Assembly (NCBI GenBank): GCA_965369805.1
Contig: CBDURG010000001.1
Location: 1-38,257, forward strand
Source: an uncultured bacterium
Lineage (GTDB): Bacteria; Auribacterota; UBA6266
Direction of reading: 5' to 3'
Length of the DNA stretch: 38,257 nucleotides
A model generated the notes under the pieces. That model saw nothing but the letters and a program-made list of their open reading frames with translations, did no database searches and had not been told where the DNA came from. The translations under genes were made by a program, and so were the position numbers. Positions 7,212-28,142 of the stretch are shown piece by piece. How positions within the stretch are numbered: the first letter of the stretch is position 1; every line of letters starts with the position of its first letter.

Positions 7212-7829
7212 ATGTTTAAACATATTCTCAGGGAACTAAAAAAACACGCCCCTTTTACTGCTTTTGGAGCAATTACCGGAATATTAATCATAATATACTT
7301 TCAAAAACTGTCCTTCAAAACTTCATATGATATTTTCTACATACTTCACCCAATGCATATCCTGTTAAGCGCCTTTGTAACCGCGTCCATGTATAAAATC
7401 CACAAAGATAAATGCAGCTTATGGATTCTATTAGCTATTGGCTACACAGGCTCTATAGGAATAGCAACGCTAAGCGATTCATTAACGCCATATCTGGCAG
7501 AGAGCCTGCTTAATATGCCAAACAGGCATGTACACATAGGCTTTATTGAAAAATGGTGGCTTATTAACCCGCTGGCAATATTGGGCGCGGCAATAGCATA
7601 TTTTAAACCAAGAACAAAACTTCCTCACGGCGGGCATGTCTTATTAAGCACCTGGGCATCAGTCTTTCACATTATTATGGCTAAAGGAGAACCTTCACAC
7701 TGGTTCGCGTATATCAGCATTTTTCTGTTTCTTTTTATCGCGGTATGGATACCCTGTTGTTTAAGCGACATTATATTTCCAATGTTATTTGTAAAAGCAG
7801 ATGAAAAAAAGCACCTCCAAAACCATTAA
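7212..7829 (+). CDS. polytopic membrane protein with conserved His motifs, function unknown
   Basis: 205 aa, about 6 hydrophobic segments. HPMH, HVH and HGGH motifs. No family recognised with confidence. Confidence 0.5.
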   Translation: MFKHILRELKKHAPFTAFGAITGILIIIYFQKLSFKTSYDIFYILHPMHILLSAFVTASMYKIHKDKCSLWILLAIGYTGSIGIATLSDSLTPYLAESLLNMPNRHVHIGFIEKWWLINPLAILGAAIAYFKPRTKLPHGGHVLLSTWASVFHIIMAKGEPSHWFAYISIFLFLFIAVWIPCCLSDIIFPMLFVKADEKKHLQNH

Positions 7830-13513: not shown

Positions 13514-14278
13514 TTATTTTTTCTTTCTTCCCTGGCGCATGTCACATGCCAGAATCATCGCTTCCGCTATTTCCTTCATGGTTTTGCGATTATCCATGGC
13601 AAATTTTTGTATCTTATTATAGGCTTCCTGCTCTGTTAATTTTTCTTCTTCCATTAACAGGCCCTTTGCCTTCTCGATTTTTTTACGTGATTCAAGTTCT
13701 TCCTGTATCACCCTGGTTTTTACCATAAGTTCGGTGTTTTCAATCGCGACGGCGGCCTGATGGGCTATGGTCTTCAGTATGTTGATTTCGCCGTAGGAAA
13801 ACTCATGAGTAACCGGAGTATAACAATTTATAACACCTATAACCTTTCCCTTAACTGTAAGAGGCACACAAAGCAGCGACTTTAAACCCTCATTTTTAGC
13901 CATATCATGATATTTATATTCCTTTTCCAAACTGACATCTTTTACCGAAATCGGCTTGTTTTCTTTCGCGGCCTTGCCTGAAATCCCTTCGCCTATCTTA
14001 ATTGGGGGTTTTTTATTATATTCATCACTTACGCTCTGGGTTGCCCGTATTGTAAGTTCTTTCTTTCTCTCGTCAAGAAGCATTAAAGTACATATATTTG
14101 AGTTCATCACCTGAGCGGTAACCGCGACTATAAGTTTAAGAATGTCTTCAAGATAGTTATCCGAAGCAATCGCCTTGCTTATTTTAAACAGGGCTTCAAG
14201 CTGTTTCTCATTTTCTTTCATATCAAAATCCTCATTTTTTAATGTCGAGATAGCAAATTGCTTTTTGTTCAAGGACAT
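13514..14278 (-). CDS. GAF domain + ANTAR domain RNA-binding antiterminator
   Basis: GAF-like core (LMLLDERKKELTIRA...GEGISGKA...) and C-terminal ANTAR (ESRKKIEKAKGLLMEEEKLTEQEAYNKIQKFAMDNRKTMKEIAEAMI). The likely true start is the ATG at 14221 (MKENEKQ), preceded by GAGGA that overlaps the upstream gene's TGA stop. Confidence 0.85.
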   Translation of the reverse strand: MSLNKKQFAISTLKNEDFDMKENEKQLEALFKISKAIASDNYLEDILKLIVAVTAQVMNSNICTLMLLDERKKELTIRATQSVSDEYNKKPPIKIGEGISGKAAKENKPISVKDVSLEKEYKYHDMAKNEGLKSLLCVPLTVKGKVIGVINCYTPVTHEFSYGEINILKTIAHQAAVAIENTELMVKTRVIQEELESRKKIEKAKGLLMEEEKLTEQEAYNKIQKFAMDNRKTMKEIAEAMILACDMRQGRKKK

Positions 14279-22802: not shown

Positions 22803-22825
22803 ATTAATATTTTCACTTAGCGTTT

Positions 22826-22861
22826 ACACAAAAGTTACGGCACCGCCAAAAAGAGGTGCCG
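22826..22861 (-). terminator. GC-rich hairpin/partial terminator in the glnA-gltB spacer
   Basis: RNA sense CGGCACC-UCUUUUUGGC-GGUGCCG (7 bp) followed by UAACUUUUGUGU. It is the only structure in the 83-nt spacer. Confidence 0.45.
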
Positions 22862-22885
22862 CAACTTCCAACTTTGCTATTTTTA

Positions 22886-24994
22886 TTACATCATAAACAT
22901 CATTTCAGCATATGTAGCAAGCGGCCACTTTTCATCGGGAACCAACCCCTCAAGAGCATCAACAAATCCCCGAAGTTTCACCGTGGCCGTGATTTTCTCC
23001 TTTGATGAACCTTTCTTTATGGCTTTCTCAAGCCCGCTTATTGAAACAAGCGCGCCTTCTGTCTTTGCGCATACTTCAGAAAGCAAAGCCTTTGTTGATT
23101 TTAACGCGTTTTTCCTGTCAACCTTAGAAACAGCGTTGATGGTTTCGGCCAATTCACTCTGGTACTCCAAAGCCGCGTTAATAACCTGTGTTTTAGCTAT
23201 TGTTACCGCTACTTCCGATTCAACCTGGATAATTTCATCATACTCTTTTTGATAAACCTCAAACCTTGACTTAAGCTCTTTCTCTGATAAAACCTTATAC
23301 TTTTCAAAAAGCTTAACCGTTTTTACATCCAGGAGGATTTTTAAGGATTCAGGCGTTGTTTTCAGATTAGAAAGCCCTCTCTTCTTTGCTTCTGAATGCC
23401 AAGCCTTAGTATAATTATCCCCATTAAATAAAATACGTTTATGTTCTTTAACTATCTTCCGCAGTATTTTCTGTAAAGATTTGTTGAACTCTTTTTTCGC
23501 GGAAACATCTTTTTCCAGTGAAGCGCAAATATCATCAATCGCCGCCGCGACAATCGTGTTTAATACTATGTTTGGGCCGGCACAGTTCTGGTTTGAGCCT
23601 ACCGCACGGAATTCGAACTTATTCCCGGTAAAGGCAAACGGCGATGTCCTGTTCCTGTCGGTCGCGTCTCTCGGGAGGGTTGGAAGCGAAGAAACCCCGA
23701 TTTTTATAAAACCGCCGCTCTTAGAAGTTTTGGCCTCACCTCTTTCTATCTGGCCGATCACACCCGTTAATTGTTCTCCAAGAAAAATTGACAAAATCGC
23801 GGGGGGTGCCTCATTGGCTCCAAGCCTGTGGTCATTACCCGCGGTAGCTACCGAGGCTCTTAATATCTCCGCGTGAGTATCCACCGCCTTGATAAGCGCG
23901 CAAATCAGAGTTAGAAACTTCGCGTTATCATGCGGGTTATCTCCCGGGCTCAGCCAGTTTTTACCATCCGGGCCTTTTATCGACCAGTTATTGTGTTTGC
24001 CCGAACCATTAACGCCGGCAAACGGCTTTTCATGAAGAAGGCACACAAAATCATGATCTTCGGCTACCTTACGCAGAACTTCCATAAGCATCATGTTATG
24101 GTCAACAGATAAATTTAACCCTTCATAAACGGACGCGACTTCAAACTGGCCGGGACAAACCTCGTTATGGCGGGTTTTCGCCGGAATACCAAGCTTCCAT
24201 AGCTCTCTGTCAAAATCATCCATAAAAGTCATTACCCTGTCTTTAATAGCACCAAAATAATGATCTTCCATTTGCTGGTGTTTTGCCGGTGCTTTGCCGA
24301 ATATTGTTCTTCCGGTTTGAATAAGGTCAAGCCGGCTCTCATAAAAGGCTTTGTCTATAAGAAAATATTCCTGTTCCGCTCCGAGAGTCGCGTAAGCTTT
24401 TCTGCCGCCATCTTTAATTTTAAACAGCCTGCCCAGGCGGCACACCTGCTCTGATAAAGCTTCCATAGATCTCAGGAGAGGAGTTTTTTTGTCCAGAGAA
24501 TCGCCGTGATACCCGCAAAATACGGTCGGGATGCAGAGAGTAGCCCCATTTTCTCCCTCTTTTATAAACGCGGGGCTGGTCGGATCCCAGGCAGTGTATC
24601 CCCTTGCTTCAAAAGTCGACCTTAATCCTCCGGACGGAAAACTTGAAGCATCGGGCTCCCCCTGAATTAATTCTTTACCTGAAAATTGAAGTATTACCCC
24701 TCCCTCAGAATCCGGGACAATAAAGGAATCATGCTTTTCTGCCGTTGTCCCGGTCAGGGGCTGAAACCAATGAGTAAAATGGGTCGCCCCCTTTGAAACC
24801 GCCCAGTTTTTCATGGCATCGGCAACTTCATCGGCAATGGCCGGATTTAGTGACTTTCCCTTCTCCATCGTTTCTTTCAAAGAGTTAATCGCCTTATCCG
24901 AAAGATAATTGCGCATTGTTTTAAAGCTAAACACGTTTTGGCCATAAATCTCTGTTATCGCTTTTGCCGGGTCCAGTTCAGATTTCCTACTCAT
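22886..24994 (-). CDS. glnN: glutamine synthetase type III
   Basis: 702 aa. GSIII-type N-terminal domain (ATHFTHWFQPLTG) and catalytic domain motifs (HNEVCPGQFE, NGSGKHNNWS). Confidence 0.93.
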   Translation of the reverse strand: MSRKSELDPAKAITEIYGQNVFSFKTMRNYLSDKAINSLKETMEKGKSLNPAIADEVADAMKNWAVSKGATHFTHWFQPLTGTTAEKHDSFIVPDSEGGVILQFSGKELIQGEPDASSFPSGGLRSTFEARGYTAWDPTSPAFIKEGENGATLCIPTVFCGYHGDSLDKKTPLLRSMEALSEQVCRLGRLFKIKDGGRKAYATLGAEQEYFLIDKAFYESRLDLIQTGRTIFGKAPAKHQQMEDHYFGAIKDRVMTFMDDFDRELWKLGIPAKTRHNEVCPGQFEVASVYEGLNLSVDHNMMLMEVLRKVAEDHDFVCLLHEKPFAGVNGSGKHNNWSIKGPDGKNWLSPGDNPHDNAKFLTLICALIKAVDTHAEILRASVATAGNDHRLGANEAPPAILSIFLGEQLTGVIGQIERGEAKTSKSGGFIKIGVSSLPTLPRDATDRNRTSPFAFTGNKFEFRAVGSNQNCAGPNIVLNTIVAAAIDDICASLEKDVSAKKEFNKSLQKILRKIVKEHKRILFNGDNYTKAWHSEAKKRGLSNLKTTPESLKILLDVKTVKLFEKYKVLSEKELKSRFEVYQKEYDEIIQVESEVAVTIAKTQVINAALEYQSELAETINAVSKVDRKNALKSTKALLSEVCAKTEGALVSISGLEKAIKKGSSKEKITATVKLRGFVDALEGLVPDEKWPLATYAEMMFMM

Positions 24995-25071
24995 ATTTCA
25001 TCTCCTATTATTTTAATACTTTCTCCATAAACCCAGCAATCCTTTGGATTGCAGAGAACAAAATCAGGGAT

Positions 25072-25118
25072 AAACAAAAAAAGGCACTCAAAAACCCTGC
25101 AGGTTTAAGAACGCCTTT
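25072..25118 (-). terminator. intrinsic terminator inside the glnA leader
   Basis: RNA sense AAAGGCGUUCUUAAACC-CUGCAG-GGUUUUUGAGUGCCUUU (about 15 bp with a 2x2 internal loop) followed by UUUUGUUU. Lies about 75 nt upstream of the glnN ATG. Confidence 0.55.
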
Positions 25119-25135
25119 GTCATATTTTTTTCGGC

Positions 25136-25151
25136 GGTACAACTTTGTACC
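25136..25151 (-). promoter_or_regulatory. hexaloop hairpin in the glnA leader (candidate ANTAR-binding element)
   Basis: RNA sense GGUAC-AAAGUU-GUACC. 5-bp stem, hexaloop with A1 and G4. Sits about 17 nt upstream of the leader terminator. Confidence 0.4.
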
Positions 25152-25171
25152 TATTTCCAAAATCGTTGTCC

Positions 25172-25200
25172 TTTTTACTATACATTTTTCTACATGTCAA
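25172..25200 (-). promoter_or_regulatory. putative sigma-70-type promoter of glnN
   Basis: CTTGACA (-35 at 25195-25200), 17 nt spacer, TAAAAA (-10). Confidence 0.35.
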
Positions 25201-25277
25201 GTTCATTTTATACTATTTCTTTCGAAAATTCCACACTTACCTGATGCTTTTAAACATAATCAGAAGATTTTTCCGTT

Positions 25278-25619
25278 TTAACCAATAGCCATGCTCCCTT
25301 CTTCTCCTGTCCTGATTCTTATGCAAGTGGGCAAATCAAGTACAAATATCTTACCATCCCCTATTTTTCCGGTTCTGGCCCCTTTAATAATAGCGTCCAT
25401 AGTGGGCTGGACAAATTCTTTATTCACCGCGATTTCAAGTTTTACCTTTTTCAAAAGGTTAACTTCGTGAATAACCCCCCTGTAGGCTTCCATGAAACCT
25501 TTCTGCTGGCCGCATCCAAGAGCATTTGTAACAGTCATTTTATGCACGTCAGCAGCAAAAAGCGCTTTTTTTACATCCGGAAGTTTATGCGGCTGAATCA
25601 TAGCAATTATTAATTTCAT
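25278..25619 (-). CDS. glnK: P-II nitrogen regulatory protein
   Basis: 113 aa. PII signatures (T-loop [27 protein letters not shown]). Immediately downstream of amtB. Confidence 0.93.
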
Positions 25620-27900: not shown

Positions 27901-27931
27901 CTGAGCTCAAATAAAGCACCAACAAAGTGCT

Positions 27932-27976
27932 TAAAACAAAAAAGCCCTTTTCAAGCGAATATCTTTGCTTGAAAGG
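27932..27976 (-). terminator. intrinsic terminator inside the porin-amtB leader
   Basis: RNA sense CCUUUCAAGC-AAAGAUAUUC-GCUUGAAAAGG (10 bp, one bulge) followed by GCUUUUUUGUUUU. Confidence 0.6.
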
Positions 27977-28066
27977 ACTTCATTATCCGAATATAAAAAA
28001 AGACGCTCTTCCAAACGCCTCATTGCAAAAACCTCAGCACATCCCCTGTACCGCACTACAGATTAC

Positions 28067-28095
28067 ACAATACATGACAACTAAAAATATGTCAA
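28067..28095 (-). promoter_or_regulatory. putative sigma-70 promoter of the porin-amtB-glnK operon
   Basis: CTTGACA (-35, 28090-28095), 17 nt spacer, TATTGT (-10, 28067-28072). Implies a leader of about 240 nt. Confidence 0.45.
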
Positions 28096-28142
28096 GAAAA
28101 AATTATTATTAATCTTTTTTCCCCGCTTTGACACCATTTATC

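Follow-up and report, generated by a model that had tools for sequence, protein, structure and literature searches.

A probable ANTAR-type transcription attenuator in the leader of a type III glutamine synthetase gene from an uncultured bacterium

Introduction

In the spacer between a PII gene and the glutamine synthetase gene glnA of an uncultured bacterium, a promoter facing glnA is followed by an intrinsic terminator, and the locus raises the question of what would let RNA polymerase pass it. An earlier note, made from the sequence alone, had proposed that a promoter-proximal hairpin with A1 and G4 in its loop and a conditional terminator, shared among nitrogen-gene leaders, are recognised by an ANTAR regulator. 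Related loci support this shared hairpin, the terminator and the link to the regulator, while the antiterminator drawn in that proposal is not conserved among them.

Known ANTAR targets are dual hexaloop hairpins in which the first base of each loop is A and the fourth is G (A1/G4), the first hairpin (P1) stable and the second (P2) unstable and buried in the terminator (Ramesh et al. 2012, PMC3369931; Walshe et al. 2022, PMC8934654). The linker between P1 and P2 measures 5-12 nt in the eut leaders, and linkers of 3 or 14 nt impaired the induction of eutP (PMC3369931). Table S2 of the same study (PMC3369931) holds ANTAR RNA matches before genes for glutamine synthetase (25 mentions), glutamate synthase, P-II and ammonium transporters, some of them in units where the ANTAR gene is co-transcribed with glnA. 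The catalogued elements come from Firmicutes and other bacteria, including Desulfotomaculum acetoxidans with 13 elements in 6 units, Alkaliphilus metalliredigens with glnA and an ANTAR gene, and Carboxydothermus hydrogenoformans.

The PII-glnA spacer is read here as an ANTAR-type transcription attenuator, with a probability of roughly 0.8, which would be operated by the GAF-ANTAR protein whose gene is the last in the string headed by glnA. This reading is supported by the presence of all the sequence-defined features of an ANTAR target, namely two A1/G4 hexaloop hairpins, of which P2 lies in the 5' arm of the terminator.

Gene setting

The window, that is, the whole stretch of 38,257 nucleotides of DNA that was analysed, carries the leader under study on its minus strand. 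The spacer is bounded on its 5' side by the PII gene (25278-25619, minus) and on its 3' side by glnA (22886-24994, minus), which encodes a type III glutamine synthetase (GSIII) with the Pfam domains GSIII_N (5.6e-78), Gln-synt_C and Gln-synt_C-ter. glnA is the first gene under the control of the leader, with its ATG at 24994 and the Shine-Dalgarno sequence AGGAG at 25006-25002 (minus). It opens a string of minus-strand genes that continues with gltB, gltD and a PPDK_N-like gene of 871 aa and ends with the GAF-ANTAR gene. The closest named relatives of the GSIII protein are from Candidatus Omnitrophota metagenome-assembled genomes (MAGs), with 65-72% identity, and the metagenome DNA runs containing the region are from cold seeps and marine sediment.

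Three relatives, L081, L083 and L085, whose GSIII proteins are 96%, 75% and 73% identical to that of the window, were used for comparison of the locus. Just upstream of the nitrogen cluster, the window harbours a group II intron (Rfam RF02005, RF00029; 28854-30713, minus) with a reverse transcriptase ORF of 445 aa. L081 carries nitrogenase-like Oxidored_nitro genes and a radical-SAM gene upstream of amtB (1-2670), where the window has a porin-like gene of 250 aa, a CopG-like gene and the intron. Another difference concerns a conserved ORF of ~59 aa, apparently a small helix-turn-helix protein with a sequence including GYTLYDLS...TIERW.K..RINKIYAK.VKEKL, which lies between PII and the next nitrogen gene in L081 (9380-9710) and L083 (8229-8408). 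It is missing from the PII-glnA spacer of the window, and L081 also has a run of N in the region of this ORF.

The spacer between glnA and gltB (22803-22885, minus; 83 nt) contains a 12-bp stem-loop, AGUUGCGGCACC...GGUGCCGUAACU, followed by UUUUGUGU, which is kept in L081 (12110-12192), and L083 (12110-12203) shows a similar stem-loop whose U-tract is poorer. The spacer stem-loop lacks an ANTAR-type hexaloop. It may set the ratio of glnA to gltBD, either by leaky termination or as an element for processing or stability. The recurrence of CAAAGUUG from the glnA leader in this spacer, which had been taken as a sign of a shared element, is at chance level and not conserved. The 8-mer CAAAGTTG occurs four times in the window against 1.9 expected, a count reached by 12 of 100 shuffles, and its copy in the glnA-gltB spacer is missing from the L081 spacer, though the stem-loop there is kept.

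Elements of the glnA leader

The leader begins with a sigma-70-type promoter (25172-25201, minus) read from the sequence, in which 17 nt separate cTTGACA (25201-25195) from TAAAAA (25177-25172), as had been described before. Its predicted transcription start lies near 25165. The -35 element had further been counted among the features that these leaders have in common, but it is no special mark of them: CTTGACA occurs six times in the window against 3.5 expected, equals the sigma-70 -35 consensus and is found at an ordinary MarR promoter too.

Shortly after the predicted start stands the recruitment hairpin P1 (25136-25151, minus), formed by GGUAC (25151-25147), the loop AAAGUU (25146-25141) and GUACC (25140-25136). 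This hairpin, with a 5-bp stem and an A1/G4 hexaloop, was correctly recognised in the earlier note; it folds with -7.4 kcal/mol (z = -4.4), and none of 200 shuffles folds as well. A 14-nt, A-rich linker (25122-25135, minus) separates it from a second hairpin that had been overlooked, the antitermination hairpin P2 (25110-25121, minus). P2 has the form GAC-AAAGGC-GUU, with a stem of only 3 bp and a hexaloop that likewise has A1 and G4. Taken by itself, this segment remains an open chain (0 kcal/mol), showing that P2 is unstable alone.

The intrinsic terminator (25076-25118, minus) consists of an interrupted hairpin extending to 25080 and a U7 run at 25082-25076, and the prediction of such a structure was thus confirmed. 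Its 5' arm AAAGGCGUUC (25118-25109) and an upper stem AAACCU/GGGUUU are involved in pairing with the 3' arm GAGUGCCUUU (25089-25080), giving a fold of -17 kcal/mol (z = -2.7). The U-run ends ~80 nt before the glnA ATG, close to the 75 nt estimated earlier. The loop and the 3' arm of P2 are at the same time the first bases of the terminator 5' arm, so that the two folds are mutually exclusive, and it is P2 that is the real competitor of the terminator, in place of the CGCC/GGCG pairing suggested before. An unstable P2 set against a terminator of -17 kcal/mol means that the leader would be off by default.

Between the terminator and the Shine-Dalgarno sequence of glnA, a stretch of ~39 nt (25033-25071, minus) holds one more hairpin, GCAAUCC-AAA-GGAUUGC (25036-25052, minus), with a perfect 7-bp stem. 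The stretch is missing from L081 and may be a small insertion; the extra hairpin probably lies outside the switch.

Orthologous glnA leaders

The hairpin and terminator, whose absence from orthologous leaders had been named beforehand as evidence against the proposal, are present in L081 and L083 and, in divergent form, in L085. The L081 leader is nearly identical to that of the window, with the same promoter, P1, P2 and terminator, and the G-to-A change in its P2 improves the pairing by turning a G-U pair into A-U. L083 also has TTGACA-17-TAAAAA and the same terminator arm as the window, and a string TTGACA...TATAGTAAAAA is common to the window, L081 and L083. The P1 of L083, GCAC-AGGGUU-GUGC, shows a compensatory change from a U-A to a C-G pair, and the P2 is AAC-AGAGGC-GUU. 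The L085 leader is a divergent two-hairpin version with TTGACA-17-TATAAT, P1 GCAC-GAAGUC-GUGU and P2 GC-AAUGAG-GC overlapping the terminator, followed by a second module, and in this locus the GAF-ANTAR gene directly follows glnA.

Conservation and covariation in GAF-ANTAR loci

A wider comparison was made with 80 metagenome loci (L087-L166) that encode orthologues of the GAF-ANTAR protein with 61-74% identity. When glnA, gdhA and amtB leaders were mixed, they fell out of register in MAFFT because their linkers differ in length, and the first covariance model was therefore seeded with the glnA leaders of the window, L081 and L083 only. With an E threshold of 1, this model gave 37 matches in 748 kb, the three seed leaders included. 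About 30 of the 37 precede GAF-ANTAR genes by 100-500 nt, on the coding strand, and come from independent metagenome loci that had been chosen because they encode GAF-ANTAR.

Among 33 distinct related leaders, 96% of the cells in P1 are paired, with compensatory, both-side changes in four of the five pairs, whereas P2 is paired in 99% of cells and shows one-sided changes only, that is, conservation without covariation. For the structure as a whole, 97% of cells are paired against 23-50% with slid partners, and none of 500 shuffles reaches the covariation score; all these pair counts come from an alignment fitted to the covariance model and therefore lean towards the structure. The P1 stems covary (GCAC, GUAC, AUAC, ACAC and others) around a conserved loop, and P2 is nearly invariant as (G)RAC-AAAGGC-GUU(C). 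The check on stem covariation and on loop positions 1 and 4 recommended in the earlier note thus came out in favour of the element, with G4 nearly invariant and position 1 an A, sometimes a G. The loop consensus C-AAWGNU given there is close to that of the relatives and not identical with it, as their P1 reads C-AARGUU(A)-G and the loop often has 7 nt with A1 and G4 kept (e.g., AAGGUUA). The linker is mostly ~7-12 nt in the relatives compared with 14 nt in the window, and its sequence and length vary there.

The elements around the two hairpins are retained as well. In 23 of 26 related model matches, a terminator with hairpin and U-run overlaps P2, its 5' arm starting at the GGCGUUC of P2, and inspection by eye finds a similar P2-overlapping terminator in the other three. 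TTGACA and an extended -10 element stand 10-25 nt before P1 in most related leaders. A separate, literature-based descriptor requiring P1, P2 and the overlapping terminator found the full module in 32 of 68 GAF-ANTAR leaders. It matched 0-1 of 68 dinucleotide-shuffled leaders and 3 of 334 segments drawn at random from the same loci.

As a control, a refined model, R2, was run over 595 kb of GSIII loci spanning many phyla and gave only three matches. One of them is a carB leader in a Candidatus Omnitrophota MAG (L001) in which glnA is followed by a GAF-ANTAR gene and then carB; this leader runs from cTTGACA through P1 GGUAC-AAUGAUA-GUAUC, P2 GGAC-AAAGAC-GUUC and a terminator into carB. Within the window, R2 found the glnA leader alone (E = 4e-13), and the gdhA and amtB leaders had no significant score.

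Two further features were seen in the relatives. In the L087-L166 loci, stacks of up to three modules lie 100-500 nt before the regulator gene (e.g., L108 7745-7948 and L111 7743-7947), in the order GCAC-AAGGUUA-GUGC with GGAC-AAAGGC-GUUC, UUUC-AAWGUUA-GAAA with GGAU-AAAGRC-GUCC, and then GAAC-AAUGGC-GUUC, with P1 loops of 7 rather than 6 nt. Such stacking suggests steep autoregulation. Five related leaders (L098 at ~7535-7570, L099, L091, L102 and L155) lack TTGACA upstream of P1 and share GGTTACCAAA, ~13 nt, and then TTTTTTACTT(T/G)(A/T)ATA, a motif pair that another sigma factor may recognise as its promoter; the leaders of the window itself use TTGACA, unlike those five.

The GAF-ANTAR regulator

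The last gene of the string (13514-14278, minus) encodes a one-component regulator with a GAF_2 domain (Pfam, 1.2e-22) and an ANTAR domain (2.1e-18) that covers profile positions 3-54 of 54. Alignment with L081 points to M20, at 14221, as the likely start, which gives a protein of 235 aa. The ANTAR domain is complete and matches the structures of Rv1626, EutV, NasR and AmiR. Among solved structures, the GAF domain comes closest to an uncharacterised GAF domain (3e0y), to that of EI-Ntr (PtsP) and to the NifA-like Nlh1. GAF domains of EI-Ntr and NifA respond to glutamine and 2-oxoglutarate, which makes a nitrogen-status ligand plausible for this GAF domain; by this analogy, the signal might be guessed to be 2-oxoglutarate and/or glutamine. 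The class of GAF-ANTAR proteins is without any characterised member (PMC7496416).

Leaders of gdhA and the amtB operon

The architecture described for the glnA leader had also been ascribed to other nitrogen genes of the window, and indeed the leaders of gdhA and of the porin-amtB-PII operon both begin with CTTGACA and carry a hairpin and a terminator. Inspected by eye, the gdhA leader has P1 GCGC-AAUGGU-GCGC at 9345-9332 and P2 GAC-AAGGAU-GUC at 9312-9301, the latter inside the terminator arm. In the porin-amtB-PII leader, P1 may be drawn as CGGUAC-AGGGGAU-GUGCUG, with a 7-nt loop, and P2 as UGC-AAUGAG-GCG at 28027-28016, overlapping a terminator at 28021-28000. The GAF-ANTAR protein therefore probably runs a small nitrogen-assimilation regulon including gdhA and porin-amtB-PII, a reading of these two leaders based on inspection by eye, a permissive descriptor and the relatives.

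In many bacteria gdhA and the genes of the GS-GOGAT pathway are oppositely regulated. The occurrence of the same type of positive switch before gdhA and before the GS-GOGAT genes thus makes the physiological signal uncertain.

Two or three terminators stand in tandem in the porin-amtB-PII leader (27930-28100 of the window, minus) and in the relatives L083 (5435-5665) and L085 (9600-9775 and 12690-12840). Each is preceded by its own hairpin with a hexaloop bearing A or G at position 1 and G at position 4 that overlaps its 5' arm, such as GGAU-AAUGAA-GUCC at ~27988-27975, and an obvious P1 partner is seen for the first terminator only.

Proposed mechanism and alternative readings

According to the proposed mechanism, RNA polymerase would start from the sigma-70 promoter, and the nascent RNA would form P1 first. 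When the regulator is absent, the downstream sequence would fold as the terminator, and most transcripts are predicted to stop at the U-run (25082-25076). An active dimeric GAF-ANTAR protein (13514-14221) would bind the A1/G4 loop of P1 and then hold the weak P2, keeping GGCGUU(C) from the terminator stem and allowing the polymerase to read on into glnA. Read-through would probably extend onward to gltBD, the 871-aa gene and the gene of the regulator itself, unless the glnA-gltB spacer stops transcription efficiently. Transcription reaching the regulator gene would amount to positive autoregulation, which fits the relatives that carry a module directly before this gene.

The most serious alternative, an unlikely one, is a constitutive leader in which P1 would stabilise the 5' end and the terminator would either be leaky or belong to the upstream amtB-PII operon, with no regulated read-through. 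The PII gene has no strong terminator after it, so the hairpin could simply end the amtB-PII transcript. The terminator, however, lies downstream of a conserved promoter facing glnA, and the loops of P1 and P2 are conserved while the stem of P1 covaries. Moreover, GAF-ANTAR genes that lack an upstream operon in need of a terminator are also preceded by the module, in up to three tandem copies, and a constitutive leader leaves the link to ANTAR genes unexplained.

Two other readings fare worse than the constitutive one and may both be regarded as very improbable. The first retains the antiterminator of the earlier note, a pairing of CGCC (25136-25133) with GGCG (25115-25112), and reduces P1 to a mere protein landing site or 5' stabiliser. 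When the leader is truncated, RNAfold does pair GCC with GGC over 3 bp, but across the 33 related leaders the CGCC/GGCG pairing is found in 67.5% of cells against 67.6% after shuffling, and its two core pairs in 45%; most relatives have gaps at this place, and their linker sequence varies. The second would relieve the terminator without a protein, by an RNA-only or metabolite-sensing switch such as a glutamine riboswitch, for which a leader with a terminator before a nitrogen gene is also a typical layout. No Rfam family, such as the glutamine riboswitch or the T-box, reached the gathering score in the leader when the window was searched, and a search at E up to 10 over 24950-25300 returned three non-bacterial chance matches only. 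The conserved part consists of two tiny hairpins and has no structure the size of a ligand pocket, P2 has no intrinsic stability and the module tracks GAF-ANTAR genes, all of which argue against a riboswitch.

Attenuation through a leader peptide deserves almost no credence, as the 11-codon frame from ATG to TGA at 25123-25088 (MTKAFLNLQGF), which overlaps P2 and the terminator, has no Shine-Dalgarno sequence before it and its ATG is lost in L081 (gATAAca) and absent in L083.

Comparison with known systems and significance

The ANTAR reading of the glnA leader places it beside EutV with eutP, eutG, eutS and eutA of Enterococcus faecalis, NasR with nasF of Klebsiella oxytoca and AmiR with amiE of Pseudomonas aeruginosa. 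All share the two A1/G4 hexaloop hairpins, the location of P2 in the terminator 5' arm, an ANTAR gene nearby and nitrogen-related targets. The sensor domains differ, being REC, NIT or pseudo-receiver in those proteins and GAF here, and the 14-nt linker of the window exceeds the range of the eut leaders (PMC3369931). Also in contrast to those systems, the relatives of the window usually have a P1 loop of 7 nt and up to three tandem modules before the regulator gene, and the present case is a prediction from sequence.

The regulons predicted from Table S2 (PMC3369931) are alike in the set of glnA, gltB, amtB and P-II genes, in the predicted co-transcription of the ANTAR gene with glnA and in the presence of several elements per genome; the locus described here differs in its uncultured lineage, type III glutamine synthetase and GAF-ANTAR regulator. 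The GnfK/GnfR system of Geobacter sulfurreducens is reported to control nitrogen-fixation and assimilation genes by antitermination (Ueki and Lovley 2010, PMC2995071), and a similarity lies in an ANTAR regulator that relieves terminators in nitrogen-gene leaders. GnfR is reported to be a phosphorylated response regulator under a sigma-54 cascade, whereas a one-component GAF protein and sigma-70-type promoters are found here.

Because the 2012 catalogue already includes ANTAR leaders of glutamine synthetase genes, the glnA leader adds no new kind of element or mechanism. Less routine are the GAF-ANTAR architecture, the 7-nt P1 loops in the relatives, the 14-nt linker, the stacked modules before regulator genes and the uncultured, probably Omnitrophota-like lineage.

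A much broader proposal is tentative and, taken as a whole, rather doubtful: GAF-ANTAR proteins might serve uncultured, Omnitrophota-like lineages as the master regulators of nitrogen, with GAF domains that sense 2-oxoglutarate and/or glutamine directly. They would then open glnA-gltBD, porin-amtB-PII, gdhA, carB and their own gene through a variant ANTAR site with a 6-7-nt AARGUU(A) P1 loop, and up to three stacked attenuators would provide the steep autoregulation.

The glnA leader provides a concrete candidate RNA target in which P1 and P2 are defined to the base, and its analysis offers a probable regulon for the GAF-ANTAR class. ANTAR-based nitrogen control would thereby be extended to an uncultured lineage of cold seeps and sediments.
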